From NCBI GenBank assembly GCA_046727415.1, contig JBKPCO010000035.1:1554-65553 (forward strand): 64,000 nt of DNA. Direction: 5' to 3'. Positions 1,502 through 63,597 of this stretch are shown in pieces. The position numbers and the translations under genes are program-made. Within the stretch, counting starts at the first letter, position 1, and every line of letters starts with the position of its first letter. A model generated the notes under the pieces. The model saw nothing but the letters and a program-made list of their open reading frames with translations, did no database searches and was not told the origin of the DNA. The DNA comes from Candidatus Methylomirabilota bacterium. Lineage in GTDB: Bacteria > Methylomirabilota > Methylomirabilia > Rokubacteriales > CSP1-6.

Positions 1502-2182
1502 GTGAAGCGCATGAGCGACGAGACGTTCGACTACCCCACGATGGCGCGCGCGTTGATTCTGGGCGACAAGGACACCGTCGCCCGCAAGACGCGCGAGGGC
1601 CTCGACCTGTCGCTCGACCCGAAGGTGCTCATCTTCAAGGGCCTCATTCCGGGCATGGACGTCGTCGGCGAGAAGTTCCGCCGCAACGAGTACTACGTCC
1701 CGCAGGTGCTCTTGTCGGCGCGCGCCATGTACGCCGGGCTCGATCTCCTGAAGCCGCTCATTACCGCCTCCGCGCGCGGCGGCGACTATCTCGGTATCGT
1801 GGTCATCGGGACCGCGCAGGGTGACCTGCACGACATCGGCAAAAACCTGGTCGCGATGATGCTCGAAGGCGCCGGCTTCAAGGTCGTCAACCTGGGTCGC
1901 GATGTCGCCCCCGAGGTATTCGTCAACGCGGTCGGCGAGCACAACGCCAACATCGTCGGCATCTCAGCCCTGATGACCACCACCATGCCGGCCATGAAGC
2001 GCACGATCGACGCTTTGATCAAGGCGGGGCTCCGCGAGCGGGTCAAGGTCATGGTCGGCGGCGCGCCGGTGAGCCAGGCGTTCGCCGACGAGATCGGTGC
2101 CGACGGCTACGCCAAGGACTCTACCCTGGCCGTCGTGAAGGCCAAGGCCCTGGTCGGCGCCACCGCGGAAGTCGCCTCGTGA
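1502..2182 (+). CDS. Corrinoid (cobalamin)-binding methyltransferase partner protein
   Basis: DxHxxG lower-ligand motif 'GDLHDIGKNLV', SxL 'SALMTTT' and GG 'VMVGGAPV', preceded by a B12-binding_2 helical cap. Same architecture as MtaC/MtbC and the MetH cobalamin module. GTG 1502 (ATG 1511 is an alternative). Confidence 0.9.
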   Translation: MKRMSDETFDYPTMARALILGDKDTVARKTREGLDLSLDPKVLIFKGLIPGMDVVGEKFRRNEYYVPQVLLSARAMYAGLDLLKPLITASARGGDYLGIVVIGTAQGDLHDIGKNLVAMMLEGAGFKVVNLGRDVAPEVFVNAVGEHNANIVGISALMTTTMPAMKRTIDALIKAGLRERVKVMVGGAPVSQAFADEIGADGYAKDSTLAVVKAKALVGATAEVAS

Positions 2183-3099
2183 AGGCACGCGGCTGGGAGA
2201 TCGTCGACCGGATCCGCGGGGGCGAGACGCTCGTGTTCGACGGCGGCTACGGCACCATGCTCTTCGCGGCCGGGCTCGCGAACGGCGCCTGTCCCGAGCT
2301 GTGGAACGACACGCACGGCGACGTCGTGCGGGGCATCCACGCGGGCTATTTTGGCGCCGGCAGCCAGATCGTCGAGACGAACACCTTCGGTGGCACCCGG
2401 CTCAAGCTCAACGAGTACAAAATTGGCGACCGCACGCGCGAGCTAAACGAGAAGGGCGCCCGGCTGGCGCTGGCGGCGGCGCCGCCGTCGGGGTACGTGG
2501 CCGGATCGATCGGGCCGACCAGCCGTCTGCCGCTCGACTACGCCCTCGACGAGGGCGTTACCGACGAGGAATACCTCGAAACGTTCCAGGAGCAGGCAAC
2601 CGCGCTCGCGGAGGGCGGGGTCGATCTCTTCGCGGTCGAGACCATGATGTTCCCGCAGGAGTGCACGGCGGCGATCCGTGCGTGCAAGGCGGTGGCGGAC
2701 CTGCCGGTGATGGCCACCATGTTCTTCCAGTACGAGGAGATGCACGACCGGGACCGGACGATGTGGGGTGAGAGCCCGTCTGAGGTCGCGAAGAACCTCG
2801 TCGCCGCCGGCGCCGACGTGGTCGGCATGAACTGCGGCCGCGGTCCAGACCGCGCGATCGTCATCATCCGTGAGATGCGTGGGGCCACCGACGTTCCGCT
2901 CGTCGCCTATCCGAACGCGGGCTTGCCGGTCACCACGGGAGACATCGTGACGTACGAGCTCGGCCCGGAGGAGATGGCGCGCGAGTATCCGGCGCTCCTC
3001 GACGCCGGATGCAACATCGTGGGCGCGTGCTGCGGATCGAACCCCGAGCACATCCGCCGCATCGCGGAGGTCGTCCGAGGCCGACGCCCGAAGCGGTGA
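2179..3099 (+). CDS. Homocysteine S-methyltransferase-domain protein (MetH Hcy-barrel-like, stand-alone)
   Basis: PF02574-type motifs 'FDGGYGTML' and 'ETNTFG', with Zn-ligand cysteines in 'GMNCG' and 'GACCGSNPEHI'. The start overlaps the stop of the corrinoid gene by 4 nt. Confidence 0.85.
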   Translation: MKARGWEIVDRIRGGETLVFDGGYGTMLFAAGLANGACPELWNDTHGDVVRGIHAGYFGAGSQIVETNTFGGTRLKLNEYKIGDRTRELNEKGARLALAAAPPSGYVAGSIGPTSRLPLDYALDEGVTDEEYLETFQEQATALAEGGVDLFAVETMMFPQECTAAIRACKAVADLPVMATMFFQYEEMHDRDRTMWGESPSEVAKNLVAAGADVVGMNCGRGPDRAIVIIREMRGATDVPLVAYPNAGLPVTTGDIVTYELGPEEMAREYPALLDAGCNIVGACCGSNPEHIRRIAEVVRGRRPKR

Positions 3100-3821
3100 A
3101 GGCGCAGCTTTCCACAGCGTCGCGCGTTCTCACCGCACTCCCGCTCGCCATCGATCCGGCGGAGGTGCTCCGCTTCCAGGGCTACAAGAAATCGGTCGAC
3201 ACTCCGGACCCGGAAGTGCGGGACCTCTTCGCCCAGGCGCTCGCGCTCGGGCGAAGCCTCATGGACCCGCGCGCCGTCGTGCGCTGGCTCCCGGTGCAGC
3301 GCCAGAGCGCCGACGCGATCGAGGCCGGCGACGCCACGCTGGCCATCCCCGACGTGGGCCGCCTGTGGGGACCAGTCGAGTGGATCGCGGCCGCCGTGTG
3401 CACGATCGGAGACGCGCTCGAGCGGCGCGCAGCCCAGCTGTGGGACGCGCGCGAGCTTCCGCTCGCCGCGATGCTCGACAGCGTCGGATCGGGAGCCGTC
3501 GAGAGCCTGGCCGAGTACGTCAACGATCTCCTGTGCCAGGAGGCGATTCCGCTCGGGCTGCCGGTGACGAACCGCGTGAGCCCCGGGTACGGTAGCTGGG
3601 ACGTGGCCGAGCAGCGCGTCCTGTTCGACGTGTGCCCGGGCGCGCCGATCGGTGTCAGCCTGAACGAAGCCTGCTTCATGACGCCGGTCAAGTCGATCTC
3701 GCTGCTGGCCGCGGCCGGCGCCGGCGCGCGCGTTGACCACTACTTCAGCCAGTGCGCGCGGTGCTGGATGCGCGATTGCGCCTACCGGCGAACGGCCGCC
3801 CACAAGACCGTACATCGCTAG
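3096..3821 (+). CDS. Methionine-synthase activation (SAM-dependent reactivation) domain protein
   Basis: Resembles the MetH C-terminal activation domain and the stand-alone 'B12-dependent methionine synthase activation domain' proteins ('NRVSPGYGSWD' ~ RxxxGY SAM motif). ORF-track start 3009 lies inside the upstream gene. GTG 3096 overlaps its TGA (GTGA). Confidence 0.7.
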   Translation: MKAQLSTASRVLTALPLAIDPAEVLRFQGYKKSVDTPDPEVRDLFAQALALGRSLMDPRAVVRWLPVQRQSADAIEAGDATLAIPDVGRLWGPVEWIAAAVCTIGDALERRAAQLWDARELPLAAMLDSVGSGAVESLAEYVNDLLCQEAIPLGLPVTNRVSPGYGSWDVAEQRVLFDVCPGAPIGVSLNEACFMTPVKSISLLAAAGAGARVDHYFSQCARCWMRDCAYRRTAAHKTVHR

Positions 3822-3878
3822 CGCCTCTCGACCCCTGGTGGCGTTCAGCCGCGTACCCCGATCTGATACGATGCGAGG

Positions 3879-4403
3879 ATGCGGCGTGACAACGTCGTGC
3901 TCGTTGGATTCATGGGCGCCGGAAAGTCGGTCTGCGGGCGGCTCCTGGCGCGCCGGCTCGGGCGCTGCTTCGTCGAGACCGACGACATGATCGTCGCGCG
4001 CGAGGGCCGCTCGATCCCCGAGATCTTCCGCGACGAGGGCGAGGAGCGATTCCGCCAGCTCGAGACCGAGACGCTCGACGCGCTGACACTGAAGTCGGGT
4101 GACGTCATCGCCACCGGCGGCGGCCTGCCGTGCCGCGAGGGCTGGATGGAACGGCTGCGGGAGCTGGGCACGGTCGTCTGGCTCGACGGCGACGTACACG
4201 AGCTGCTCGAGCGGGCCCGCCGGGTCGGCAACCGGCCGATGCTGGACGGGCGGTCCGGTGACGAGATCGAGGAGCTCTACCGGGCGCGCCGGCCCTACTA
4301 CGGACGGGCGCACCTCACGATCGACACGACGGGACGCAGCGTCGACCAGGTCGTCTCGCTCGTCCTGGCCGCCCTGCGGGACGCGCATGCCGTACGAGCT
4401 TAG
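3879..4403 (+). CDS. aroK: Shikimate kinase
   Basis: 174 aa with P-loop 'GFMGAGKS' and 'RQLETETL...ATGGG' typical of AroK. Confidence 0.9.
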   Translation: MRRDNVVLVGFMGAGKSVCGRLLARRLGRCFVETDDMIVAREGRSIPEIFRDEGEERFRQLETETLDALTLKSGDVIATGGGLPCREGWMERLRELGTVVWLDGDVHELLERARRVGNRPMLDGRSGDEIEELYRARRPYYGRAHLTIDTTGRSVDQVVSLVLAALRDAHAVRA

Positions 4404-6237
4404 CCGCCGGCTCACTGCGGCGCCACTCCTGTGCGACGGCGCAATGGGCACGCTGCTCTACTCGCGCGGGGTCTCTCTGGACGCTTGCTTCGACGTCCTC
4501 AACCTGAACAATCCCAGGCTGATCCAGTCGATCCACGCCGACTACATCGCGGCCGGTGCCGACTGCATCGAGACGAACACTTTCGGCGCCAACCGGTTCA
4601 AGCTGGCCGTGCACGGGCTGGAGGGACAGGTCCGCGAGATCAACCGTCGCGGTGCGGCAACGGCCCGCGACGCCCGCGAGAGCTCCGGCCGCGACGTCTT
4701 CGTTCTCGGCTCGATCGGGCCGCTCGGGAAATACCTGGCGCCGCTCGGCACGGTGACCGCCGACGAGGCCCGCTCGGCGTTCCAGGAGCAGGCCGAGGCG
4801 CTACTCGAGGGCGGGGTCGACGCGTTCATCGTCGAAACCTTCTCCGACCTCGACGAGGTTTCGCTCGCGGTCGGAGCCATCCGCGCGATCACCGATGTAC
4901 CGATCATCGCGCAGATGGCGTTCACCGACGACGGTGTCACGTTTACCGGCCGCTCGGCGGCCGAGGTCGCGCGCGCGGTGAGTGCGCTTCCCGTGCAGGC
5001 CCTCGGCGCCAACTGCTCGGTCGGTTCGAGCACTCTCTACGAGGTGCTCCTTCAAATGCAGGCCGAAGCCGCGAATTTACCGCTGTGCATCCAGCCGAAC
5101 GCCGGGCTGCCCAGCCGCATCGGGGAGCGCCTCATCTACCTCTCGTCCCCGGCCTACATGGCGGACTACGCGGGGCGGATGGTCGACGCCGGTGCCAGGC
5201 TCGTCGGGGGCTGCTGCGGGACCACGCCCCAGCACATCGCGGCGATGCGCGAGGTGCTCGACCGCCGCCGGCCGGGGCGGCCCGAGGCCCGACGCGCGAC
5301 AGTGTCGGTCAGTCCTGTTGCCGCCAGTGCCGACCCGGGCCTCCACGTCGCTCGGCCTCCCACGGTTCTCGGGCGCAAGCTTGCGGCACGGGAGTTCCTG
5401 GTCACCGTGGAGCTCGACCCGCCGCGCGGGCACACCGTCGAGAAGCTCGTGCAGGGCGCCAAGCTCCTGCGCGAGCGCGGCGTGGACATCGTCGACATCA
5501 ACGACGGCTCGCTCGGGCGTGTCCGCATGGCGGTGCTGCCCACGGCGCTCCTCGTCCGGGACGCGACCGGGCTCGACATCAACATGCACTTCACGTGTCG
5601 TGACCGGAACCTCATGGGCATCCAAGGCGATCTCCTGGGCGCTCATGCCCTCGACGTGCGCAACATCCTGGCGATGACCGGCGACCCGCCGCGCGCCGGC
5701 GACTATGCCAACGCCACGGCCGTCTTCGACGTCGACGGTGTCGGTCTGATCGAGATCCTTCGTCGGATGAACGAGGGTCAGGATGCGACCGGAAGCAGCA
5801 TCGGCGAGCCGACCTCGTTCTACGTGGGCGCTGCCCTGAACCCGGCGGCTGAGGACGTCGCGCGCGAGATCGACCGCTTCCAGCGCAAAGTGCAGGCGGG
5901 AGCTCGCTGGGTGCAGACCCAGCCGGTGTACGACCTGGCCCAGCTCGATCGCTTTCTCGAGCAGGCTGGGGGCTCACCGGTTCCGGTGCTGGTCGGCATC
6001 CTTCCGCTCCACAGTGCGCGCCACGCCGAGTTCCTTCACAACGAGGTCCCGGGCATCACGATCCCCGAGCCGATCCGCCGCCGTCTGCGCGCGGCCGGAG
6101 ACGGCGCGCTTCCCGTGGGCATCGAGATGGCGCAGGAGCTCGTCCGGGCCGTTCGCCAGCGCTACGCCGGCGCCTATCTCATGCCCTCGTTCGGACGCTT
6201 CGAGGTCGTCGCGGAGGTCCTCGATGCCATCCGCTGA
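4387..6237 (+). CDS. yitJ: Bifunctional homocysteine S-methyltransferase / 5,10-methylenetetrahydrofolate reductase (YitJ-like fusion)
   Basis: N-terminal PF02574 domain ('CDGAMGTLL','ETNTFGANR','GGCCGTTPQHI') fused to a C-terminal MetF/MTHFR barrel. ATG 4387 chosen. The ORF-track N-extension from 4099 is Arg/Ser-rich and overlaps aroK. Confidence 0.85.
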   Translation: MPYELSRRLTAAPLLCDGAMGTLLYSRGVSLDACFDVLNLNNPRLIQSIHADYIAAGADCIETNTFGANRFKLAVHGLEGQVREINRRGAATARDARESSGRDVFVLGSIGPLGKYLAPLGTVTADEARSAFQEQAEALLEGGVDAFIVETFSDLDEVSLAVGAIRAITDVPIIAQMAFTDDGVTFTGRSAAEVARAVSALPVQALGANCSVGSSTLYEVLLQMQAEAANLPLCIQPNAGLPSRIGERLIYLSSPAYMADYAGRMVDAGARLVGGCCGTTPQHIAAMREVLDRRRPGRPEARRATVSVSPVAASADPGLHVARPPTVLGRKLAAREFLVTVELDPPRGHTVEKLVQGAKLLRERGVDIVDINDGSLGRVRMAVLPTALLVRDATGLDINMHFTCRDRNLMGIQGDLLGAHALDVRNILAMTGDPPRAGDYANATAVFDVDGVGLIEILRRMNEGQDATGSSIGEPTSFYVGAALNPAAEDVAREIDRFQRKVQAGARWVQTQPVYDLAQLDRFLEQAGGSPVPVLVGILPLHSARHAEFLHNEVPGITIPEPIRRRLRAAGDGALPVGIEMAQELVRAVRQRYAGAYLMPSFGRFEVVAEVLDAIR

Positions 6238-7534: not shown

Positions 7535-9127
7535 GTGTTCGACCTCAAGATCGAGGGCGCACAGGTCATCGACGGCACCGGGCGGCCCGGAGCCCGGGCG
7601 GACGTGGGCATCAAGGACGACCGCATCGCGGCGGTCGGCGACCTTCACCGCGAGGCCGCGGGCAGCAACCTGCACGCGTCGGGCAAGGTCGTGGCGCCCG
7701 GGTTCATCGACATGCACTCGCACTCGGACTGGCGACTCTGGGAAAATCGCCGTGCGGAATCGAAGGTGAGGCAGGGCGTGACCACCGAGGTGGTCGGCAA
7801 CTGCGGATTCTCGCCGGCGCCGGTGTCCGACGAGTTCCTCGACGATCTGCGCGGGTTCGCACTCCACGTGCCAGCGGGCATGGACTTTCGCTGGCGTTCC
7901 GTCGGCGACTACCTCCGGGCGTTCGATTCGAGCGGCACGGCGCTCAACGTGATCCAGCTCATTGGTCACGGCACGCTGCGCGTGGCGGTCATGGGCTTCG
8001 CGCGGCGCCAGCCGACACCGGCTGAGCTTCGGCGCATGCAGAAGCTGCTCGCCGATGGGATCGAGGACGGTGCGTGGGGCCTCTCCACCGGGCTGATCTA
8101 CCCGCCGGGCTCATTTGCCACGACCGACGAGATCGTGGAGCTCGCCGCCGTCGCGGGTCGGCATCGCGGCTTCTACGCGAGCCACATCCGGGGGGAGGGG
8201 GCAACCCTGCTGGACGCCGTTCAGGAGGCGATCCACGTGGGCCGGGAGGGCGACCTGCCGGTGCAGATCAGTCATGTTAAGGCGGCCGGACGGCCGAACT
8301 GGGGTAAGGTGGCCGATGTGCTCGCGCTCGTCGATGCCGCGCGGGACGAGGGACTCGACGTTATGGCCGACGTCTACCCGTACACTGCGTCCAGTACCAT
8401 GTTACGGGCGCTCCTGCCGGACTGGGCGCTCGAGGGCGGGATTGATGCCATGCTCGGACGCCTCGCCGATCCCGACGCCCGCGCGCGCATCCGCCGCGAC
8501 ATCGAGTCGCCGCCGACTGGCCAGAGCCTCGTCGACCGCATCGGGTGGGAGAACGTCATGATCGCGTCCGCCGTCAAGCGCCGCGACGCCGAGGGAAAGC
8601 GCCTATCCGAGATCGCGGCCGCCGGCGGTGTGGACGCGGTCGACGCCGCGCTGGAGCTGCTCGAGGCCGAGGGCGGAAAGGGCTCGATGATCCTCTTTCA
8701 GCTCGACGAGCGCGATCTCAGGCGGGCGCTCGTGCACGAGGCCGTCATGATCGGCTCCGACGGTTCGGCGCTCGCGCCCGGCGGCCTGGCCGGGGGCAAG
8801 CCGCATCCGCGGAGCTACGGCACCTTTCCGCGTGTCCTCGGGGAATACGCGCGCGAGGAGCGCGTGCTGACGCTGGCCCAGGCGGTTCACAAGATGACGG
8901 GTCTTCCGGCGCGCCGTCTCGGGCTCAAGGATCGGGGCGTCATCGCGGTCGGCGCGCGGGCCGACCTCGTGGTGTTCGATGCGCGCCGGGTCGGCGACCG
9001 CGCCACTTACCAGGAGCCCCACCAGTACCCGTCGGGGATCGAGCACGTCCTCGTCAACGGCAGCTTCGTTATCAAGGACGGCCAGCACACCGGGAGCCTT
9101 CCCGGGAGACTCCTGACACCGGCATGA
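7535..9127 (+). CDS. N-acyl-D-amino-acid deacylase (D-aminoacylase) family amidohydrolase
   Basis: 530 aa. 'VAPGFIDMHSHSD' HxH metal motif and the overall D-aminoacylase layout. GTG 7535 lies 3 nt after the amidase stop. Confidence 0.85.
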   Translation: MFDLKIEGAQVIDGTGRPGARADVGIKDDRIAAVGDLHREAAGSNLHASGKVVAPGFIDMHSHSDWRLWENRRAESKVRQGVTTEVVGNCGFSPAPVSDEFLDDLRGFALHVPAGMDFRWRSVGDYLRAFDSSGTALNVIQLIGHGTLRVAVMGFARRQPTPAELRRMQKLLADGIEDGAWGLSTGLIYPPGSFATTDEIVELAAVAGRHRGFYASHIRGEGATLLDAVQEAIHVGREGDLPVQISHVKAAGRPNWGKVADVLALVDAARDEGLDVMADVYPYTASSTMLRALLPDWALEGGIDAMLGRLADPDARARIRRDIESPPTGQSLVDRIGWENVMIASAVKRRDAEGKRLSEIAAAGGVDAVDAALELLEAEGGKGSMILFQLDERDLRRALVHEAVMIGSDGSALAPGGLAGGKPHPRSYGTFPRVLGEYAREERVLTLAQAVHKMTGLPARRLGLKDRGVIAVGARADLVVFDARRVGDRATYQEPHQYPSGIEHVLVNGSFVIKDGQHTGSLPGRLLTPA

Positions 9128-11660
9128 AGAGCGGCCTGGCGTCGCGTGATCTGCTGGCGCCGATCTCCGCGGCCTCGTCGGTGACGGATGGGCTCCGCGA
9201 GTCCCTGCGCCGGCTGGTGGCCGTCACCGGCTCGACCGCCGGCGTCGTCACTCTCCCATTACAAGATGAGGCGCCGATCGTCGTCGCGCGCGGCAGCAGC
9301 ACATCCCTTCCACTCCGGCGATGGCTGACCGACGTCACGGCCGTGCCCGCGCGCGGGACGCGGCTCACCCGTGTCGTGCCGCCGGGCTCCCCCCGGAGCC
9401 GCCCGGCGGCTCTCTTGAGGGCTCCACTCGATGCGCGCGGCCGGCGAGTCGGCGAGCTGGCCCTCCTGGGCACGGTCGGGCGCCTGACGGCGTCGGTCTT
9501 GCCGGCGAGCTTTCCCCGCGAGCTCGGGGCGGCCATCGATCGTCGGTGCGATCTCGAGCGCCTCGCCCTCCGCGCGGAAGTCGTCAACGAGCTCACGACC
9601 CTGCTGTCGTCGCCACACACGCTCGACGAGGTGTTCGCCACCTTCGCCGGGGGCATTGCGCGCCTCGTGCGATTCGACTCGATCAGCATCGCGCTGCTCG
9701 ACACCGAGCGCGGCACGTTCGAGAGCTTCGACCTGGCGGCCGGCGCGCTTCGCGGATCTCCGGCCCCAGGAACCTCGACGCCACTCGAGGGCACCGTCCT
9801 GGAGCGCGTGGTGGCCACCGGCGTCCCCGTGCGCATCGACGATCTCGAGCGCGACGAGGCGCCGGAAGTGAGCCGGCGCGTTTTCCTCGAGCGCGGCTAC
9901 CGCGCCGTGACGTTCGTGCCCCTATCGTCGGGCACCGTGTTCGGCGCCGTCGCGCTCGCCACCACCCGGCCCGGCGCGCTGGGGGATGGCGACCTCGAGG
10001 TGGTCGCCGAGCTCGCGCGCCCGCTGGCCCTCGGGATCGAGCGGTGGCGCCTCGCCGAGGAGAGCAGCCGGCGGGCGCGAGAAACTCACGCGCTCCTCGA
10101 GGCAGGCCGGGCGGTCACCGCCAGCCTCGACGTGAACCGGACGATCCGGGTCCTGCTGGAAGAGGCACGCGGCGTCCTCGGCGTCGACTCGTGCGGACTG
10201 ATGACGATCGATCCCGCGACGGGCGAGCTCGTGATGGCCGCGAGCCTCGACGTACCGGCCGCCCTGTGGCCGACGATCCGGCTGCAGCAGGGCCAGGGGG
10301 TCACGGGTCTCGCGGTGCAGCAGCGACGTCCCATGCAGAGCCCCGACCTGTCGGTCGACGCCCGCGCGATGTATCCCCACGTGGCCAGCGGCAGCGGCTA
10401 TCGCTCGATGCTCGTGGCGCCTTTGCTCCGGGGCGACCACGCGATCGGTGCGATCACCGTCTTGCGGCACGGCGTCCACGAGTTCTCGGCGCATGAGGAG
10501 GAGCTCCTGGTGGCGCTGGCGAGCCAGGCGGCGATTGCGCTGGAGCACGCCCGCCTCTACACCGAGCTGGAGGGGATGGTCGCCGACCGGACCCAGGAGC
10601 TCGACGCCCAGAAGCGGTTCGTCGAGGTGGTGCTGGAGACGATGCCGATCGGCGTCCTCGTGCTCGACGGTCAGCTCAACGTGGTCAGGATCAACCCGGC
10701 CGGTGCCCGCGCCCTGGCTTGCGCCTCCGACGCTCACGGTCCGCTCGCCCAGTTCCTGCCCCACGACAAGGGCGCGGCGGTGCTGGAGTTCCTCGGGGCG
10801 GCCTTCAACAGCCGGCGCGGCGGCTCGGTCGAGGAGGAAATGATCATCGCCGGGGACTCCAGGATCTTCCGGTTCACCGTGGCACCCGTCGCGCCGTCAA
10901 GCGATCCGGGCGCCTATGCGGTCACCCTGGTGGAGGACATCACGCACGCGAAGGGGCTCGAGCGCCAGATGCTCCTCACCGAGCGGCTCACGACGGCCGG
11001 CCGGCTTGCCGCCGGGGTCGCCCACGAGTTGAACAATCCGCTCGCGACGATCGCCGGGTGCGCCGAGTCGCTGCAGGGGCAGCTGGCGTCGGTCGATCAG
11101 CGGGCGATGACGGAGTACGCCGACTTTCGTCGTTACCTCGGCCTGATCGAGGAGGAGGCGTACCGCTGCAAGGAGATCACCGGGAGCTTGCTCCAGTTCG
11201 TGCGTGACCCGGGCAGCCGGCGGGAGCCCACCGACCTGAATGCGGTCGTGCTCAAGACGGCCGAGCTCCTGACGCGCCAGTCACGCTTCGCCGCCAGCCA
11301 TGTGGCGATCGACCTCGACCCCGCGCTGCCGCCGGTCGCGGTGAACGAGGGCCAGCTGCGGCAGGTGTGCCTCGGGCTCGCGTCCAACGCGCTGGAGGCG
11401 ATGGAGGGACGGGGTGCCTTGACGATCCGTTCGCGGGTGGGCCACGGCACGGTCGAGATCGAGCTCGAGGACGAGGGCCCCGGGATCCCCGAGGAGAACC
11501 TCGCCCGCATCTTCCATCCGTTCTTCACGACCAAGCCGCCTGGACAGGGCACCGGCCTCGGACTCGCGATCGCGCAGGGCATCGTGACCGATCACGGCGG
11601 TAGGATCGAGGTCGCCTCGGTGGTCGGCAGGGGCAGCACCTTCCGCGTGGTGCTCCCGCT

Positions 11661-11664
<4 letters not shown>
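9124..11664 (+). CDS. Soluble multi-GAF/PAS sensor histidine kinase
   Basis: No TM segment seen. About three GAF-like regions, a PAS region, H-box '[11 protein letters not shown]' and HATPase G-box 'GTGLGLAIA'. ATG 9124 overlaps the TGA of the aminoacylase gene (ATGA). The ORF-track start 8545 is an out-of-context extension. Confidence 0.85.
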
Positions 11665-13019
<1,355 letters not shown>

Positions 13020-13060: not shown

Positions 13061-13160
13061 GGAAACGTCCGCCGTTTGGGCGGACCTCGCCTGCGATGAA
13101 ACAGGCCTTCCGCGTTCGCGGCGCGTGCAAGAGAGCGGAAGACAGTCCGAGGGGGTTCAG

Positions 13161-13532
13161 ATGGCGTCCAAACTGTATATCGGCGGTCTCGCATACTCCA
13201 CGACCAGCGAAGGGCTCAGGGAGTTCTTTACTCAGTGCGGCAATGTCCTGTCGGCGACGGTCATCACCGACCGCTTCTCCGGGCAGTCACGGGGATTCGG
13301 CTTCGTCGAGATGAGCACTGCCGAGGAGGCCCAGAACTCGATTTCTCAATTGAACGGCCGCGAGCTCGACGGCCGGCGAATCACGGTCGAGATCTCGAAC
13401 CCCCAGGCGCCGCGGACCGGCGGGGGCGGCCGGCCGGGTGGCGGCGGGCGTCCGGGCGGGGGCGGCCGCGGTCCGGGCGGCGGGCGGGACAGCGGTTACG
13501 CGCACCGGCCTTCCAAGCCCGTGAAGTGGTAG
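13161..13532 (+). CDS. RRM-type RNA-binding protein with Gly/Arg-rich tail
   Basis: RNP-2 'LYIGGL' and RNP-1 'RGFGFVEM', with C-terminal 'GGGGRPGGGGRPGGGGRGPGGGR'. ATG 13161 is preceded by GAGGGGG. Confidence 0.9.
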   Translation: MASKLYIGGLAYSTTSEGLREFFTQCGNVLSATVITDRFSGQSRGFGFVEMSTAEEAQNSISQLNGRELDGRRITVEISNPQAPRTGGGGRPGGGGRPGGGGRGPGGGRDSGYAHRPSKPVKW

Positions 13533-13574: not shown

Positions 13575-13607
13575 GAAGGGGTCAGCCGGATTCCGGCTGA
13601 CCCCTTC
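13575..13607. terminator. Bidirectional hairpin between convergent genes
   Basis: Near-perfect inverted repeat GAAGGGGTCAGCCGG / CCGGCTGACCCCTTC. A short T-containing tract follows on the + strand. Confidence 0.6.
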
Positions 13608-13633: not shown

Positions 13634-15505
13634 TCAGCCGGCCGGCGTCGGCTCGACCCCGTCGAAGATGCGGTCGTAGCGGCCGTATTCACGCGCCGCG
13701 TCCATGAACCACTGGACGATCTCGGGATTGGAGCGCGGCGGGATCTCGCAGGACGTCGACAGGATGAAGGCCGACTGGCGGGCCGCCGCGTCGATGCAGC
13801 GCCGGACGTCGGCCACCATCGCCTCTCTGGTCGTCTTCTCGAACTTGGTCGCGTCGACGTTGCCGATAGCCACGACCCGGCCCTTCGAGACCTCCATGAA
13901 GCGCGCGAGCTGGTCAACGTAGAGCTTCGGGTCGCCCTGCTGATCGAGATCGAACGACACCGTCGAGAAGCCGCAGCGGATCAGGTCCTCGTAGATGGGA
14001 TAGGTCGTGCCGCAGATGTGTGTCGTCACGCCGACCTTCTTGGCCTTGAAGTAGTCGACCAGCTCCTTGTGGTACGGCGCGACGAAGTCGCGGTAGTTGT
14101 CGGGTGAGATCAGGCTGATCGACGCGGTCGGCTCGGAGAAGGAGAGGCCGATCCCGGTTTTCACGATCGCGTCGCCCCAGATCTTGCAGAAATCGGTCGT
14201 GACCCGCATGAGGTCATGGATGAACTGCGGGTCCTCGAAGGTATCGAGCAGCATCGTCTCGGGGTTCCTGAGCAGCATGGCGATCGTCCATGGCCCCACC
14301 GCCACCGCACCGATCGCCGTCGGCGGCTTGGCCCGCACGAGCGCCTCGCACTGCTCGAGGAAGCCGGGCAGGCGCGCCGTCTTCGCCGGATCGGGCATGA
14401 CCAGGCGCGCCAGCTTCGTCTTGTCGTCTTGCAGGACGGGCTGGTCGATCGACGGCACCACGTAGTCCGAGTACTTCACGCGGCAGCCGAACGCCTCGGC
14501 CTCCTTGGCCAGGTCGTTGTAGGCGAGCACCACATCGGGCTGGTAGCGCTCGTAGTAGTTCATCATCGCGGTGATCGCCTTCGGCACGTTCGTGCAGTAC
14601 TCCTCGATGGAGAGGCCGTCGAGCGTGCCGGCGAACGAGGCGACGATCGGGTAGACCGGGACGCGATCGGCGAACGAGCGCCGGTACGCGGCGACGACGC
14701 GTTCGCGATTCGTGAACTGCGCGCGGCCGCGCTCGACGTCCCAGATGCGGTTGGCCTCCATGTACTTGGGCGGCAGCTTCGCCTCGTACTCCATGAACTG
14801 GGTGATCGGGTAGCGAATGCCGCCGTCGTGGGTGCCCTTGAGCCCCTCGATGACTTCCTCCATCTGATTCCAGGGAATCGTGAAGGCCATCTCGTGGTCC
14901 TGGGTCTGGCCGAAGATGCGGTCGCCGGAGCAGGGGAGGATCACCTGCGGCTGGTCCGTCCGCATGGTCGTCACGATGATCTCCGAGCAGTCGATGCGGC
15001 CGCCGAAGGCGGAGGTGAGCTTGCCGCCGCGCTTCCAGAGGGCGGCCTGGGTCAGGCGCATGACCTGGGCAGGGTTCGCGTAGATGCACACGAGGTGCGG
15101 CTCGAACGTTGCGCGATCGAGCGGCGCTACCAGCAGGGTCGCGTACTCGCCCGGTGCGAACTTGTCGACCGCGGCTTCCGACCGCTGCCCGGCCGCCTTC
15201 GTCTCCGTGTACATCCCCTCGCAGAGCGTCCCCGAGTTGTGCAGATGCGTCGGCTTCTCGAAGCCGAGGGCCGCGATGCCGAGCGAGCAGATGTGGTCCT
15301 CGCGCGTGAGTGCGATCATCCAGCCGTAGCGCCGGGCCATGTCGATGACCTGGCAATTCATGCTGAGCTTCTTGAAGTCGCGGGCCGGTCGTCGCGCCCG
15401 CTCGGGAATCGGCTCGCCCGGCCGCAGCATCCGGATCGCCACCGGGAACGTTTGTGGGCGGATGTAGAGCTGAAGCTCGCGATCAGCCGTCTTGACGTCG
15501 ATCAT
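13634..15505 (-). CDS. DUF169 domain fused to MtaA/CmuA-type (URO-D fold) Zn methyltransferase
   Basis: 623 aa. The N-terminal ~255 aa resemble DUF169 (COG2043) ('QTFPVAIRML...'). The C-terminal ~350 aa resemble the uroporphyrinogen-decarboxylase/MtaA family, with an 'HICG' Zn motif and a downstream 'STSCE' Cys. GGGAGG RBS upstream of ATG 15505. Confidence 0.75.
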   Translation of the reverse strand: MIDVKTADRELQLYIRPQTFPVAIRMLRPGEPIPERARRPARDFKKLSMNCQVIDMARRYGWMIALTREDHICSLGIAALGFEKPTHLHNSGTLCEGMYTETKAAGQRSEAAVDKFAPGEYATLLVAPLDRATFEPHLVCIYANPAQVMRLTQAALWKRGGKLTSAFGGRIDCSEIIVTTMRTDQPQVILPCSGDRIFGQTQDHEMAFTIPWNQMEEVIEGLKGTHDGGIRYPITQFMEYEAKLPPKYMEANRIWDVERGRAQFTNRERVVAAYRRSFADRVPVYPIVASFAGTLDGLSIEEYCTNVPKAITAMMNYYERYQPDVVLAYNDLAKEAEAFGCRVKYSDYVVPSIDQPVLQDDKTKLARLVMPDPAKTARLPGFLEQCEALVRAKPPTAIGAVAVGPWTIAMLLRNPETMLLDTFEDPQFIHDLMRVTTDFCKIWGDAIVKTGIGLSFSEPTASISLISPDNYRDFVAPYHKELVDYFKAKKVGVTTHICGTTYPIYEDLIRCGFSTVSFDLDQQGDPKLYVDQLARFMEVSKGRVVAIGNVDATKFEKTTREAMVADVRRCIDAAARQSAFILSTSCEIPPRSNPEIVQWFMDAAREYGRYDRIFDGVEPTPAG

Positions 15506-15619
15506 GTAGACCTCCCGTCCGAGCGTACTACCTCGTGAAATCCTCTACAACAGAGCCTCTTCAACGGATGTAGAATACGCCCGCCCCACGGGCAGAATTC
15601 ACTCACGGAGGCGTCGACG

Positions 15620-17059
15620 ATGCAGTCTCCCAGCGCGAGCTACAGCCTGACGGTCAGGCTCGAGATCACCAACCGGCCCGGTATGCTCGGACAGGTCACC
15701 TCGGCCATCGGCAAGGCCGGCGGCGACATCGGCGCGATCGACCTCGTCCAGGTTGGCAAGTCGACGATCACCCGTGACCTGACCTTCAAGGCTCGCGATG
15801 AACGGCACGGCCAGCAGATCGTCGAGCGCATCCGCGGGGTCCGCAGCGTGAAGGTCGTGAACGTCTCCGACCGCACCTTCCTCATGCACCTGGGCGGCAA
15901 GATCGAGGTGCGCGGCAAGATGTCCGTCAAGACGCGCGACGACCTCTCGATGGCCTACACTCCCGGCGTCGCGCGCGTCTGCATGGCGATCCACCACGAT
16001 CCGCAAAAGGCCTACGCGCTGACGATCAAGCAGAACTGCGTGGCGGTGGTCACCGACGGCACCGCGGTCCTGGGACTCGGCGACATCGGGCCGTTCGGGG
16101 CGGCGCCGGTCATGGAAGGCAAGGCGCTCATCTTCAAAGAGTTCGCCGGCGTCGACGCGTTTCCGATCTGCCTGGCCACCAAGGACGTCGACGAGATCGT
16201 GTCGATCGTCAAGGCCATCTCGCCGATCTTCGGCGGCATCAACCTGGAGGACATCTCGGCGCCGCGCTGCTTCGACATCGAGACGCGGCTGCAGAAGGAC
16301 CTCGAGATCCCGGTGTTCCACGATGACCAGCACGGCACCGCGGTCGTCGTGCTGGCCGCCATCATCAACGCTCTGAAGATCGTCAAAAAACGCCTGAGCG
16401 ACGTGAAGATCGTCTTCATCGGCGCGGGCGCCTCCGGTATCGCGACCGCGAAGCTCCTCATGCGGGCCGGCGCCAAGCACATCATCGCGTGCGACCGCGC
16501 GGGGGCCCTCTACCGCGGGCGTACCGACAACATGAACTCGATGAAGGAGTGGTTCGCCAAGCACACCAACGAGAAGCGGCTCAAGGGCACCGCCGCGGAC
16601 GCCCTGAAGGGCGCCGATGTGTTCATCGGGCTCTCGGGGCCGGGGGTCGTGTCGCTGAAGGACATCAAGGCCATGAGCCGCGATCCGATCGTCTTCGCCA
16701 TGGCCAACCCGATTCCCGAGATTTTGCCCGAGGAGGCCGGCCCCTACGTGAAGGTGATGGCCACCGGGCGGTCGGACTATCCGAACCAGATCAACAACTC
16801 GTGCTGCTTCCCCGGGTTCTTCCGCGGCATGCTCGACGTGCGCGCCCGGCGCGTGAACGACGACATGAAGCTCGCGGCCGCCCAGGCCCTGGCGGCGATC
16901 GTGACGGCGGAGGAGCTCGGCGAAGAGTACATCACGCCCTCGATGTTCGACAACCGCGTGGTGCCCTCCGTCGCGGCCGCCGTCTCCGAGGCGGCCATCA
17001 AGTCGGGCGTGGCGCGCAAGCGCACACGGGGCACTGCCGCGGCGGCGGCGACGCGGTAG
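15620..17059 (+). CDS. NAD(P)-dependent malic enzyme with N-terminal ACT domain
   Basis: ACT-like first ~75 aa, then malic-enzyme motifs '[11 protein letters not shown]', '[15 protein letters not shown]' and '[10 protein letters not shown]'. Confidence 0.9.
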
Positions 17060-17070
17060 GAGACTGCGTC

Positions 17071-19026
<1,956 letters not shown>

Positions 19027-59640: not shown

Positions 59641-61961
59641 CGCCGCGCTATACCGGCACGAGCGTCAAACGGCTCGAGGACCCGCGGCTCTTGCAAGGCG
59701 GCGGGCGCTATCTCGACGACCTGGTGTTTCCGAAGATGCTGAGCGTGAGCTTCGCGCGCAGCCCGCACGCGCATGCGCGGATCGATCGGATCGAAACGGC
59801 CGGGGCCCGCGCGGTGCCCGGTGTCGTAGGCGTGGTCACAGCCGCCGAGGTGCGGGCCGTCGCGAAGCCGCTCGCGCCCAGGCTCGACGGCGGCGGATTT
59901 ACCCAGACCGCCTGGCCCGCGCTGGCTGATGGCACGGCGCAGTTCTGTGGCGAAGCGGTGGCCGCGGTCGTCGCGTCGGGCGCCGAGGCCGCGGCCGACG
60001 CGCGCGAGAAGATCTCGATCGACTGGACGCCGCTGCCGGCCATCACGAGTCTGGACCAGGCGCTGGCGGCGGACCGTGTCATCTTCCACCGCCGCCATCG
60101 TGCCGGTGACGTCGATGCCGCCTTCGCGCAGGCGGCGTTCGTCGTGGGCGAGACGTTCGAGCACGGCCGGTGCGCGCCGACGCCGATGGAGCCGCGCGGC
60201 ATCGTGGCCGACTGGGACGGCGACACGCTGACGCTGTGGTCGCCGAGCCAGTGCCCGTCGCTCATGCGCACGGCGCTCGCGGCCGCCCTCGACCTTCCGG
60301 AACCGCGGGTCAGGATCGTGACGCCCGACGTCGGCGGCGGCTTCGGCCTCAAGATGCAAGTCTTTCCGGAAGACCTCGCGGTCGCGGCGCTCGCGCGAAT
60401 GCTCCGGCGCCCGGTGAAATGGATCGAGGAGCGCCGTGAGAATCTGGCGGCGGCGTCGCAGGCGCGGGAGGGGCGGACGACGGTCGAGATCGCTGCGGCG
60501 GCGGACGGCACGCTGCTGGCGATACGGGCGCGCATCGCGTCCGACGCGGGGGCGTATCACGCATATCCGACGACGGCGGCGCTCGAGCCGCTGGGCACCG
60601 CGAGCATTCTGCCCGGCCCGTATCGGGTGCCGGCGTACGAGTACGACACGCGGGCACTGGCCACGCACAAGCCCCCGCTGGGGGCCTATCGCGGCGTCGG
60701 CATGACGATGGGCGCGTTCGTCATGGAGCGCATGCTCGACCTCGTCGCCGAGCGCGCGGACCTCGACCCGGCCGAGATCCGGCGACGCAACCTCTTGCCG
60801 CGCGAGGCGTACCCGTTCAAGTCGACGACCGGGCTCACCTATGACAGCGGCGATTTTCCCAAGGCGCTCGAGCAGGCGCTGGCCGCGGTCGGCTACGAGG
60901 AGCTGCGGCGGACGCAGGCGAAGCGGCGCGCCGCCGGTCGTCTTGTCGGTATCGGGCTCGCGTGCTACACCGAGTACACGGGAATGGGCTCGACGATCTT
61001 CCGACTGCGCGGGATGACCGAGGTGCCGGGCATCGAGGCCGCCACGGTCACCGTGGATCCCGACGGCGCGGCCAGGTGCTCCGTGAGCTTCCCGACGCAG
61101 GGGCAGGGACACGCGACGACCATCGCCCAGATCGTCGCCGATCGGCTGGGCGTGGCCATCGAGCAGGTGCGGCTCGAGCCCGGCGACACGTCACGCTCGC
61201 CGCGCGGCAGCGGCACCTTCGGCAGCCGCGGCACCGTCGCGATGCTGGGCAGCGCCGGAGCCGCCGCCGACCGCGTCGCGCAGAAGATCCGCGCGCTCGC
61301 GGCCGATCGCCTGGAGGCGAGCGCGGCCGACGTGGTGCTGGCGGGCGGGCGCGCGGTCGTGCGCGGCTTCGCCGACCGGGGCGTGAGCGTCGCCGAGATC
61401 GCGCGGACCGCGTACGCCCCGCCGCTCGGCGGGTTGCCCGGCGGCCAGACGCCGGGGCTCTCCGCCACCGTCTACTTCGATCCGCCCGGGGCCACCTTCT
61501 CGGGTGCGGTGCACGTCGCTGTCGTCGAGATCGATCCGGAGACGGGTCGCGTCGGCGTCGAGCGCTACGCGCTCGTCGAGGACTGTGGTCCAGTGATCAA
61601 TCCGATGATCGTGGAGGGTCAGATTCACGGCGCCGTCACGCAAGGCATTGGCGAAGCGCTGCTGGAATGCGTCGCCTACGACGAGGGCGGCCAGCTCCTG
61701 ACCGCGACGCTGATGGACTACGCCGTGCCCCGGGCCGACGATCTGCTCGAGCCCGAGATCGGCCATCTCGAGACTCCATCGCCCGTCATGCCCGGAGGCG
61801 TGAAGGGCATGGGCGAGGGAGGAACGATCGGCGCGCCGGCCGCGATCGCCAACGCGGTCGCGGACGCCGTGCGTCACCTGGGCGTGCGCATCACGGCTCT
61901 GCCCATCCGCCCTGAGTCGCTCCTTGGGCGCGCGGCCGCGCGCCTCGACCCGCCGTCATGA
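59637..61961 (+). CDS. Xanthine-dehydrogenase-family molybdopterin-binding large subunit (CoxL-like, non-CODH type)
   Basis: 'VKRLEDPRLLQGGGRY', 'GGGFG' and 'AYRGVG'. No ATG/GTG/TTG lies near the conserved N-terminus. CTG 59637 overlaps the DUF1015 TGA, so the start is uncertain. Confidence 0.8.
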   Translation: MTPRYTGTSVKRLEDPRLLQGGGRYLDDLVFPKMLSVSFARSPHAHARIDRIETAGARAVPGVVGVVTAAEVRAVAKPLAPRLDGGGFTQTAWPALADGTAQFCGEAVAAVVASGAEAAADAREKISIDWTPLPAITSLDQALAADRVIFHRRHRAGDVDAAFAQAAFVVGETFEHGRCAPTPMEPRGIVADWDGDTLTLWSPSQCPSLMRTALAAALDLPEPRVRIVTPDVGGGFGLKMQVFPEDLAVAALARMLRRPVKWIEERRENLAAASQAREGRTTVEIAAAADGTLLAIRARIASDAGAYHAYPTTAALEPLGTASILPGPYRVPAYEYDTRALATHKPPLGAYRGVGMTMGAFVMERMLDLVAERADLDPAEIRRRNLLPREAYPFKSTTGLTYDSGDFPKALEQALAAVGYEELRRTQAKRRAAGRLVGIGLACYTEYTGMGSTIFRLRGMTEVPGIEAATVTVDPDGAARCSVSFPTQGQGHATTIAQIVADRLGVAIEQVRLEPGDTSRSPRGSGTFGSRGTVAMLGSAGAAADRVAQKIRALAADRLEASAADVVLAGGRAVVRGFADRGVSVAEIARTAYAPPLGGLPGGQTPGLSATVYFDPPGATFSGAVHVAVVEIDPETGRVGVERYALVEDCGPVINPMIVEGQIHGAVTQGIGEALLECVAYDEGGQLLTATLMDYAVPRADDLLEPEIGHLETPSPVMPGGVKGMGEGGTIGAPAAIANAVADAVRHLGVRITALPIRPESLLGRAAARLDPPS

Positions 61962-61974
61962 GGATCTAGAGAAA

Positions 61975-63597
61975 ATGGGAAAACAGGACATCGAGATCGC
62001 CCGTGCAGTGAAGCTCCAGCCCATCCAGGCGATCGGCGAGATGCTCGGGCTCAATGGCAACGACCTCGAGCCGTACGGAACCTACAAGGCGAAGATCCGC
62101 TGGGACGTGATCGAGCGCACGACCTCGCGTCCGGACGGAGAGCTCGTGCTCGTGACGGCGATGACGCCGACGCCCGCGGGCGAGGGCAAGTCCACGACCA
62201 CGATCGGGCTGGCCGACGGGTTGCGTCGGCTCGGCAAGCGCTCGATCGTCGCGATGCGCGAGCCGTCGCTGGGCCCGGTCTTCGGTGTCAAGGGCGGCGG
62301 GACGGGCGGCGGTCACACGCAGGTAGCGCCCATGGAGGACATCAACCTCCATTTCACGGGCGACATGCACGCGATCGGCGCCGCGCACAATCTCCTGGCC
62401 GCGATGATCGACAACCACCTGGCCCAGGGTAATCCGCTCAACCTCGACAGCCGGCGGATCGTCTGGCGGCGCGTCATGGACATGAACGACCGCGCGCTGC
62501 GCCGCCTCGTGATCGGACTGGGCGGGACGGCGCACGGCGTGCCGCGCGAAACCGGCTTCGACATCACGGTCGCCTCGGAGATCATGGCGATCCTGTGCCT
62601 GGCTCGCGACCTGCAAGACTTCAAGGCGCGGGTGGAGCGCGTCGTGGTCGCCGATCGCGGCGAGGGGCCGTTCGTCACCGCGCGCGAGCTCAAGGCCGCG
62701 GGCGCGATGACGGTGCTCATGAAGGACGCGATCAAGCCCAACCTGGTGCAGACGCTCGACGGCACGCCGGCCTTCGTGCACGGCGGTCCGTTCGCGAATA
62801 TCGCGCACGGGTGCAACAGCCTCATCGCCACGCGCCTGGCGCTCAAGCTCGGCGAGTTCGTCGTCACCGAGGCCGGCTTCGCCAGCGATCTCGGCGCCGA
62901 GAAGTTCGTGGACATCAAGTGCCGGACCGGCGGGCTCAAGCCCTCGGCGGCGGTCATCGTCACCACCACCCGCGCCCTCGCCACGCACGGCGAGGAGAAC
63001 CTGGCCAAGCACGTCGAGAACGTCCGCCTCTACGGGCTGGCGCCGGTCGTGGCGCTGAACCACTTCACGGACGACACCGACGCGCAGATCGGCCGGGTGA
63101 CGTCGATGTGCAAGACGCTCGGCGTTCCCTGCGGGGTGTCGCGCGGCTGGGAGCTCGGCGGCGCCGGCGTGACCGACCTCGCCGGGATGGTGCTCGAGGC
63201 GATCAGCGCGAAAGACCGGGCGGGCGTCCAGTTCCTCTACCCTGACGACGCGAAGCTGACCGCGAAGCTCGAGACGATCGTCACGAAGATCTATGGCGCC
63301 GACGGGGTGGCCTTCGCGCCTGCGGCCGCCGCCAAGCTGGCGCGCTACGAGTCGCTCGGTTACGGCCGGCTGCCGGTGTGCGTCGCCAAGACCCAGAATT
63401 CCCTCAGCGACGACCCGAAACGGCCGGGCCGGCCGCGGGGGTTCACGGTGACGATCCGCGACGTGGCCCTCTCGGCCGGCGCCGGATTCGTCGTCGCCTA
63501 CGCGGGCGACATCCTGACGATGCCGGGGCTGCCCAAGGTGCCAGGCGCAGAGGGCATCGACATCGATGCGAGCGGCAATATCGTCGGGCTCTTCTGA
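61975..63597 (+). CDS. fhs: Formate--tetrahydrofolate ligase
   Basis: 'PTPAGEGKSTTTIGL' P-loop, about 540 aa, collinear with Fhs. Confidence 0.95.
   Translation: MGKQDIEIARAVKLQPIQAIGEMLGLNGNDLEPYGTYKAKIRWDVIERTTSRPDGELVLVTAMTPTPAGEGKSTTTIGLADGLRRLGKRSIVAMREPSLGPVFGVKGGGTGGGHTQVAPMEDINLHFTGDMHAIGAAHNLLAAMIDNHLAQGNPLNLDSRRIVWRRVMDMNDRALRRLVIGLGGTAHGVPRETGFDITVASEIMAILCLARDLQDFKARVERVVVADRGEGPFVTARELKAAGAMTVLMKDAIKPNLVQTLDGTPAFVHGGPFANIAHGCNSLIATRLALKLGEFVVTEAGFASDLGAEKFVDIKCRTGGLKPSAAVIVTTTRALATHGEENLAKHVENVRLYGLAPVVALNHFTDDTDAQIGRVTSMCKTLGVPCGVSRGWELGGAGVTDLAGMVLEAISAKDRAGVQFLYPDDAKLTAKLETIVTKIYGADGVAFAPAAAAKLARYESLGYGRLPVCVAKTQNSLSDDPKRPGRPRGFTVTIRDVALSAGAGFVVAYAGDILTMPGLPKVPGAEGIDIDASGNIVGLF

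Follow-up and report, generated by a model that had tools for sequence, protein, structure and literature searches.

The chloromethane methyltransferase CmuA carries a methyltransferase domain of the UroD superfamily fused to a corrinoid-binding domain, so that the methyltransferase and its working partner form a single polypeptide. The methylcobamide:thiol methyltransferases MtaA, MtbA, MtsA and MtpA of methylotrophic methanogens work with a separate corrinoid protein (CoP) of ~220 aa. In Mto and O-demethylase systems, a three-component scheme is established that consists of a substrate-side methyltransferase (MT I), a CoP and an MtrH-type acceptor-side methyltransferase (MT II), plus an activase [PMC8630106]. 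UroD-superfamily members are known to serve as MT I, MT II or both [PMC8630106, PMC10418091, PMC13222342], and in the chloromethane system CdmBCA the MT I is the UROD-family protein CdmB [PMC13222342; PDB 9rui]. A 64,000-nucleotide stretch of Candidatus Methylomirabilota bacterium (contig JBKPCO010000035.1 of assembly GCA_046727415.1, positions 1,554 to 65,553; hereafter the window) encodes a 623 aa protein in which a domain of this superfamily is preceded by a DUF169 domain. The gene, defined from the list of open reading frames (ORFs) and its translation, Pfam and orthologues, occupies 13634..15505 on the minus strand. An earlier note, which gave no strand, had described it as DUF169 fused to a zinc methyltransferase. 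The best reading of the comparisons described below is that it encodes a bona fide enzyme with two domains, part of a methyl-transfer system of the Methylomirabilota that depends on corrinoid (B12).

The C-terminal URO-D/MtaA-like (beta/alpha)8 domain covers residues 262-611 (13673..14722, minus strand), as judged from Pfam, TIGR01463 and a structure match. PF01208 aligns over its full length (profile 1-346 of 346) with residues 265-607 (E 7.5e-58, 196.6 bits against a gathering threshold of 23.9). An HICG motif occupies residues 496-499, the codons for His496-Ile-Cys498, the HxC zinc ligands, being read from the sequence at 14012..14020 (minus strand), and the third predicted ligand, Cys586, lies within STSCE (codon at 13748..13750, minus strand). 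Positions H496, C498 and C586 are invariant in the UROD subfamily alignment, and alignment of the subfamily profile with MtaA [PDB 4ay7] pairs HiCG with HICG and sGCe with pGCg (the cysteine of 'APGCGI'), positions which we take to be the metal ligands in MtaA. This protein, from M. mazei, is the only PDB sequence match to the UROD domain and also the top Foldseek match to its AlphaFold2 (AF2) model (TM 0.86, 23% identity), followed by uroporphyrinogen decarboxylases at ~0.8. The pLDDT of the domain is mostly >90.

Scores on curated methyltransferase models were all below the cut-off. The best NCBIfam model, TIGR01463 (MtaA/CmuA), gave 126.9 bits against 235.4, with PRK06252 at 114.9 against 244, MtaA at 90 against 400 and MtbA at 86 against 600. 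The domain shares its fold and Pfam family with HemE, but is only 15-19% identical to it, scores 40 bits on the HemE equivalog TIGR01464 (cut-off 302.95) and has a His-Cys-Cys zinc triad that, to our knowledge, HemE lacks; assignment as a true uroporphyrinogen decarboxylase was rejected on the HemE score and the invariance of the MtaA-type triad. The domain is predicted to be an MtaA-like zinc methyltransferase fold that is neither HemE nor a member of the curated MtaA/MtbA families. Relative to the MtaA group, with which it shares the fold and the triad, the fusion protein is low-scoring (127 against 235 bits), bacterial, from a host with no known coenzyme M, and extended by the N-terminal DUF169. 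Its UROD relatives likewise work with a separate CoP of ~220 aa, but appear to be substrate-side MT I enzymes that feed tetrahydrofolate (THF) via MtrH or MeTr, not MT II enzymes that methylate coenzyme M.

DUF169 (COG2043) is found widely among bacteria and archaea as stand-alone proteins of ~260 aa, to which the fused domain is 44-70% identical. PF02596 matches residues 11-221 (profile 2-209 of 209; E 3.9e-55, 187.4 bits against a gathering threshold of 27), and homology to the stand-alone proteins extends to ~residue 258; from Pfam and these alignments the domain was assigned to residues 1-258 (14732..15505, minus strand). As URO-D begins at residue 265, the two domains are joined almost end to end. 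Across 365 unique DUF169 sequences Cys51, Cys73, Cys173 and several arginines are invariant and His226 is 95% conserved. Stand-alone members match over their full length and share the three cysteines and the RYPI of the conserved tail (TH-GG-RYPI...PP-Y), differing in that they are not fused to UROD. The AF2 model of the domain (pLDDT 85, pTM 0.82) places each of the three cysteines at the N-terminus of a predicted helix and has low confidence in the tail. Foldseek comparison of this model with the PDB gave no match at E <= 1e-3, and phmmer and profile searches of PDB sequences gave none. Neither B12-binding Pfam domain (PF02310, PF02607) was found in the fusion protein, and Foldseek matched no solved B12-binding structure, so that, unlike in CmuA, the partner domain is not of the B12-binding type. 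In the full-length AF2 model (pTM 0.61) both domains are well formed and the linker/tail at residues 229-247 has low confidence. The literature found on DUF169, COG2043 and PF02596 describes no function and mentions the family incidentally, near YedE, TauE, SepRS and an HgcA-like gene; several further matches to 'DUF169' proved to be DUF1696 or DUF1691.

The fusion ORF is unbroken from the ATG at 15505-15503 to the stop at 13636-13634, with a G+C content at third codon positions (GC3) of 0.93, and a ribosome-binding site (RBS), GGGAGG, was read from the sequence 5 nt 5' of the ATG (15511..15516, minus strand). A search of 5.8 billion proteins found >120 full-length orthologues of 614-640 aa with both Pfam domains, which are 86-94% identical overall and 84-97% identical per domain. 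Median identity among 120 of them is 91% in the N-terminal half and 87% in the C-terminal half, indicating that the two are about equally constrained. Nine public contigs from several sources carry the exact window protein as 'MtaA/CmuA family methyltransferase', and public databases already contain both the protein and its domain architecture, with generic names. In a survey of one genome per GTDB species, the fusion is intact in 29 of the best 31 loci and apparently frameshifted in 2; in the copies from metagenome-assembled genomes (MAGs) at L006 and L031 the two halves are in different frames. All carriers belong to Rokubacteria or NC10/Methylomirabilis, apart from a few bins with odd labels, and the DUF169-UROD fusion was found in Methylomirabilota only. 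More distant fusion clusters also belong to NC10/Methylomirabilis (P0121, 74% N-terminal and 59% C-terminal identity; P0404, 65% and 47%), and identity across Rokubacteria and NC10 ranges from 47 to 97%. The earlier description of a single uninterrupted high-GC3 ORF with a GGGAGG RBS, joining DUF169 at ~1-255 to URO-D at ~265-610 with a zinc-ligand pattern of HICG plus the STSCE cysteine, agrees with these results, and the joining frameshift that would have overturned it is ruled out by the orthologues and the 9 contigs. Its label 'MtaA/CmuA-type' suits the fold and the zinc site but not the family score.

In several phyla beyond the Methylomirabilota, DUF169 and UROD are encoded by separate genes that lie side by side, with either one first. 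On many Desulfobacterota-type contigs a DUF169 gene (260 aa) is followed after a 1-nt gap by a UROD gene (346 aa), and these pairs are translationally coupled. Nitrospinota and Ca. Acetocimmeria have the pair in this order as well, and one Thermodesulfobacteriota MAG has it reversed. Because the halves are separate, adjacent and coupled genes elsewhere, the Methylomirabilota protein can be regarded as a Rosetta-stone fusion; the earlier note had asked how often the two families are adjacent or fused, and the survey found adjacency in several phyla and fusion in this one. The profile used to scan metagenome contigs returned one UROD clade, and the census refers to that clade only; of its 60 loci whose upstream DNA was long enough, 24 have DUF169 immediately upstream of UROD.

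The Desulfobacterota pairs are located inside acyl-CoA operons with genes for a CoA ligase or CoA-transferase, an acyl-CoA dehydrogenase (ACAD), electron transfer flavoprotein (ETF) and a 4-hydroxybutyryl-CoA dehydratase-like protein (AbfD). These operons suggest as substrate a small carboxylic acid that is methylated and is processed in the form of its CoA ester. The gene context in Rokubacteria gave no substrate hint. A 574 aa metagenomic protein, P0162, carries DUF169 at residues 175-385 and a C-terminal MaoC-dehydratase domain (26.3 bits, just under the Pfam cut-off of 27), and its N-terminal stretch looks hot-dog-like by eye with no Pfam match; this architecture again points toward acyl-CoA chemistry. 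DUF169 genes without UROD in Thermoflexus, near a 2-oxoacid dehydrogenase E1 gene, and in Terriglobia gave no functional clue.

The genes surrounding close relatives of the DUF169-linked URODs connect them with corrinoid chemistry. URODs that are 77-81% identical to the DUF169-linked ones are found in AbfD-UROD-CobA-MtrH-CoP-RACo operons, in which MtrH matches the methylcorrinoid:THF methyltransferase of D. hafniense [PDB 6sj8] (E 2e-39) and AbfD matches 1u8v. Others at the same level of identity are in ACAD-ETF-UROD operons followed by a homologue of MeTr/AcsE [PDB 2yck] (E 4e-58). More distant members of the subfamily adjoin a CoP or are part of a UROD-MtrH-UROD-CoP-RACo arrangement, and CdmB of the CdmBCA system is detectable with the subfamily profile. 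The composition of the operons of the near-identical URODs is exactly that of the three-component Mto and O-demethylase systems (MT I, CoP, MtrH/MeTr MT II, RACo/RACE). The fusion locus differs in that it has no MtrH/MeTr-type MT II gene and has DUF169 instead, covalently fused to UROD, and in that no activase is near the fusion gene. Two loci, L173 and L178, have an ACAD-ETFb-ETFa-DUF169-CoP-UROD operon with DxHxxG in its CoP.

The distribution of DUF169 relative to MT II genes was counted in loci with enough flanking DNA on both sides, dereplicated at 95% UROD identity (n=33). DUF169 alone was present in 15 loci, an MT II gene alone in 6, neither in 12 and both in none, so that DUF169 and MtrH/MeTr share no locus (0/15 versus 6/18, Fisher p = 0.02, uncorrected for relatedness). 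The operons are otherwise alike, ACAD-ETFb-ETFa-[DUF169]-UROD versus ACAD-ETFb-ETFa-UROD-[MeTr], and in a crude neighbour-joining tree the three partner states occur mixed together among closely related members. Such a pattern resembles non-orthologous displacement between DUF169 and the MT II genes. DUF169 loci were without RACo, whereas MtrH loci carry it.

Further loci with DUF169 have corrinoid-related genes nearby. On a Desulfobacterales chromosome [CP070768] (L042, 9995-13932), a stand-alone DUF169 gene is located 1.2 kb upstream of a RACo-type activase gene whose product is 32% identical over its full length to the RACo of L089; no UROD or CoP gene was found within 10 kb of this DUF169. 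In L098/L099, a non-Pyl MttB-family gene (PF06253; 11645-13088) is 1.8 kb downstream of a TetR-ACAD-ETF-DUF169-UROD operon, and no corrinoid protein was found in that 16.8-kb locus. The 'B12-binding' gene next to the UROD-DUF169 pair in L063 encodes a methylmalonyl-CoA mutase small subunit, not a methyl carrier, and was set aside.

The earlier note held that the fusion ties DUF169 to corrinoid-dependent methyl transfer. The comparative support for this link is real, comprising the adjacency of the two genes, the DUF169-CoP-UROD operons, the near-identical URODs in MtrH/MeTr-CoP-RACo systems and the RACo neighbour, and the interpretation as a whole is partly supported. The census points to DUF169 standing where the acceptor-side methyltransferase normally is, rather than to the roles in substrate binding or corrinoid docking that had been suggested.

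A candidate trans-acting CoP is encoded in the window at 1502..2182 (plus strand), with the Pfam domains B12-binding_2 and B12-binding and DxHxxG at D109/H111/G114. It scores 207 bits on TIGR02370 (methyltransferase cognate corrinoid protein; cut-off 215) and ~200 bits on MtgC/MtbC models versus 123 bits on MetH, which indicates the methyltransferase-cognate, MtgC/MtbC-like type rather than a MetH domain, and it shares 46-47% identity with the CoPs encoded in the UROD operons. The overlapping gene at 2179..3099 (plus strand) encodes a homocysteine S-methyltransferase domain protein (PF02574, E 2.4e-69), a possible acceptor-side enzyme for this CoP, and downstream of it is a weak MetH-activation-like ORF (within 3009-3821; Met_synt_B12-like, 22.7 bits against a cut-off of 25). 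L006 (Rokubacteria), L029 (Methylomirabilis) and, in part, L031 have orthologues of the CoP-homocysteine methyltransferase operon 1-2.5 kb from the fusion gene. Genes for an amidohydrolase, a GAF-PAS kinase, a sigma-54 activator and an RRM protein intervene in the window and in L001/L002, where the CoP gene is ~11 kb from the fusion gene. The result is a loose linkage with no shared operon, conserved across the phylum, which is suggestive, though not compelling. The proposal in the earlier note that this CoP is a candidate partner of the fusion is therefore reasonable as to its type and the close orthologues in L006 and L029, and is weakened by the loose linkage and the lack of an operon.

The wider cluster at 1502-6237 (plus strand) resembles a split methionine synthase. 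It comprises the genes for the CoP, the homocysteine S-methyltransferase and the activation-like ORF, followed by a shikimate kinase gene (3879-4403, plus strand) and a YitJ-like gene predicting a homocysteine methyltransferase joined to methylenetetrahydrofolate reductase. No pterin-binding module, MtrH, MttB/MtaB-type MT I or RACo was found in the 64-kb window. A formate-tetrahydrofolate ligase (804 bits) is encoded at 61924-63597 (plus strand), from which folate-linked one-carbon (C1) metabolism is taken to be present in the organism.

The arrangement that we tentatively favour, at somewhat less than an even chance, has the UROD domain as a zinc-dependent substrate-side methyltransferase, DUF169 as its fused partner in the MT II slot, and the CoP acting in trans. 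The His-Cys-Cys zinc of the MtaA-like barrel would hold the heteroatom of a small methylated substrate, most likely sulfur and possibly oxygen, and the UROD domain would exchange the methyl group with cobalt in a CoP that has a gene of its own, in an MT I half-reaction, X-CH3 + Co(I) -> X-H + CH3-Co(III). For that CoP, the MtgC/MtbC-like protein at 1502-2182 would be the best candidate in the window. DUF169 may be an obligate partner of the UROD enzyme, encoded by a separate coupled gene in other phyla, and would take the place held beside near-identical URODs by the MtrH/MeTr-type methylcorrinoid:THF methyltransferases. It is this displacement pattern that leads DUF169 to be proposed for the acceptor-side half-reaction, in which it would perform or enable methyl transfer from CH3-Co(III) to an acceptor. 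Its three invariant cysteines would probably form a metal site for this step. The domain composition, the conservation of the zinc ligands, the fold, the reality and taxonomic range of the fusion and the patterns of gene neighbourhood are established by the comparisons, and we infer which way the methyl group moves, that DUF169 acts like an MT II, which CoP is the partner and what the substrate is.

Several observations weigh against this arrangement. The CoP operon is within 10 kb of the fusion gene in only 3 of the 31 Methylomirabilota loci, and the CoP gene in the window, 11 kb away, forms a separate operon with the gene for a homocysteine methyltransferase, an enzyme that might be the actual MT II and so leave DUF169 with some other role. 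For most DUF169-UROD pairs no CoP was found within 6-10 kb; some canonical UROD-MeTr loci also have none nearby, so this absence says little. Many DUF169 proteins that are 50-56% identical to the domain in the window have no UROD within 10 kb and no CoP nearby. The UROD domain in the window shares only 38-44% identity with the URODs from whose operons the MT I role is deduced, and its nearest stand-alone relatives (P0469, 66% identical; L092-L094, 6001-8255) adjoin not a CoP but a DUF993 (PF06187) gene located 15 nt downstream, which may represent a further partner type for the subfamily. The count of loci on which mutual exclusion is based is small (n=33) and uncorrected for shared ancestry, the full-length AF2 model fixes no domain interface, and by Foldseek against the PDB DUF169 has no similarity to any known methyltransferase fold. 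Finally, HxC...C is the classical zinc site of MT II enzymes that methylate thiols, MtaA among them, and the MT I and MT II roles could for this reason be reversed.

A bolder version, in which DUF169 is a structurally unprecedented methyl-transfer module, is conceivable but rather doubtful. It would be either a third class of methylcorrinoid:acceptor methyltransferase, analogous to MtrH/MeTr, in which three cysteines form the metal site and the acceptor is not a folate, or a methyl carrier that works without a corrinoid.

Among the alternatives, the strongest is that DUF169 is an accessory module for substrate binding or presentation, for CoP docking, or for a redox or metal (Fe-S or Zn) function by which the corrinoid is kept active, an explanation that we consider unlikely though not negligible. 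In detail, the fusion would be MT I, the 1502-2182 protein the CoP and the 2179-3099 protein the MT II, producing methionine from a non-folate donor. The co-operonic homocysteine methyltransferase and weak activation-like ORF, the lack of a pterin-binding module or another MT I in the 64 kb, and the closeness of the CoP operon to the fusion in L006 and L029 are all consistent with such a scheme. However, the CoP cluster may simply represent MetH in split form, with the folate module encoded in another part of the genome, and its linkage to the fusion is loose. The three invariant cysteines at helix N-termini, the DUF169 gene adjoining RACo in L042 and the absence of RACo from DUF169 loci when MtrH loci have it would also suit an accessory role, but DUF169 has no nucleotide-binding signature of the kind needed by known ATP-dependent activases. 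An accessory role also leaves the mutual exclusion with MT II genes unexplained.

It is improbable that DUF169 replaces the CoP altogether, serving without any corrinoid as the carrier or acceptor of a methyl or alkyl group, for example by way of a cysteine thiolate or a metal centre, and working directly with the zinc UROD. The gene beside UROD in the same subfamily is either a CoP or DUF169, most DUF169-UROD pairs have no CoP or RACo in 6-10 kb when the MtrH loci of near-identical URODs have both, and three cysteines of DUF169 are invariant, all of which would fit this role. However, L173 and L178 encode both DUF169 and a canonical CoP, the latter between DUF169 and UROD, a nearby CoP is missing from UROD-MeTr loci too, making its absence weak evidence, and the chemistry is without precedent.

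There is similarly little probability that the protein is no methyltransferase at all, but a zinc UROD-fold enzyme with a DUF169 subunit that carries out another reaction on a carboxylic acid or acyl-CoA-type substrate, for example decarboxylation, thioether/thiol chemistry or hydration. The acyl-CoA operons of the Desulfobacterota pairs, the fusion of one DUF169 to MaoC hot-dog domains (P0162, below cut-off), the score under the curated MtaA/CmuA cut-off and the presence of a cofactor-free decarboxylase among the Foldseek matches to the UROD fold would fit such a role. Against this, the MtaA-type zinc triad is invariant, the HemE model gives only 40 bits against 303, and the 77-81% identical URODs in unmistakable MtrH/MeTr-CoP-RACo systems occur in the same acyl-CoA contexts. 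That a sequencing or assembly frameshift, or a lost stop, joined two genes has practically no chance of being correct, as the halves are indeed separate adjacent genes in other phyla and out of frame in L006 and L031, but the same junction recurs in >120 independent full-length orthologues from both Rokubacteria and NC10 and the identical protein on 9 contigs.

The fusion gene is apparently monocistronic. Alignment of 27 upstream regions revealed a sigma-70-like promoter candidate, TTGTAG-17 nt-TACGCT (15522..15550, minus strand), in the same position as TTGACA-17-TAGGCT in Rokubacteria orthologues and TTGACG-17-CATAAT in those of NC10, and it may be the promoter of the fusion gene. A generic promoter scan at its own threshold reported no promoter upstream of the gene, and no sigma-54 -24/-12 element (TGGC-N8-TGC) was found in the 114-nt upstream region. 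In other Rokubacteria (L009, L012, L013, L016-L022, at ~9870-10000) a conserved leader of ~110 nt separates the RBS from the TTGACA-17-TAGGCT promoter; it contains a conserved long-range helix, GCUCGG...UCUCGAGC, that shows little covariation and has no Rfam match. This leader is absent from the window, where the promoter candidate runs straight into the RBS, and no Rfam family was found within the 64 kb. A G+C-rich, terminator-like inverted repeat of 15 bp with no T run (13575..13607, no strand assigned) is situated between the RRM and fusion genes; a terminator scan did not flag it.

Upstream of the fusion gene, at a distance of 114 nt, is a divergent malic enzyme gene with ACT and malic domains (15620-17059, plus strand), followed by genes for an acetyl-CoA synthetase (17071-19026) and a major facilitator superfamily transporter. 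Convergent with the fusion gene is a gene for an RRM_1 RNA-binding protein (13125-13532, plus strand), the position of which is kept in many Rokubacteria loci and in L181. The genes for a GAF-PAS histidine kinase and a sigma-54 (NtrC-type) activator (8545-13019, plus strand) precede it, and this pair recurs a few kb from the fusion or from a DUF169-UROD pair in Rokubacteria, NC10 and Nitrospinota (L007, L012, L016-L023, L029, L031-L033 and L036). Three antisense ORFs with high GC3 and no Pfam match were rejected as artefacts, two inside the malic enzyme gene (15640-15930 and 16012-16485, minus strand) and one inside the MetH-activation-like ORF (3182-3691, minus strand). Given such artefacts and a G+C content of 69%, naive calling by ORF and GC3 is unreliable in this DNA.

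No description of DUF169 as a component of corrinoid methyl-transfer systems, exchangeable with MtrH/MeTr, was found in the literature. The fusion and the neighbourhood census give this old family a concrete, testable biochemical context, namely corrinoid methyl transfer and its acceptor-side slot. If the proposal is correct, DUF169 would represent a new class of component in methyl-group metabolism, involving methylated sulfur and oxygen compounds, methionine and C1 cycling, in abundant, uncultured soil Rokubacteria/NC10 and in marine-sediment Desulfobacterota, and it would flag a set of acyl-CoA-linked demethylation operons.

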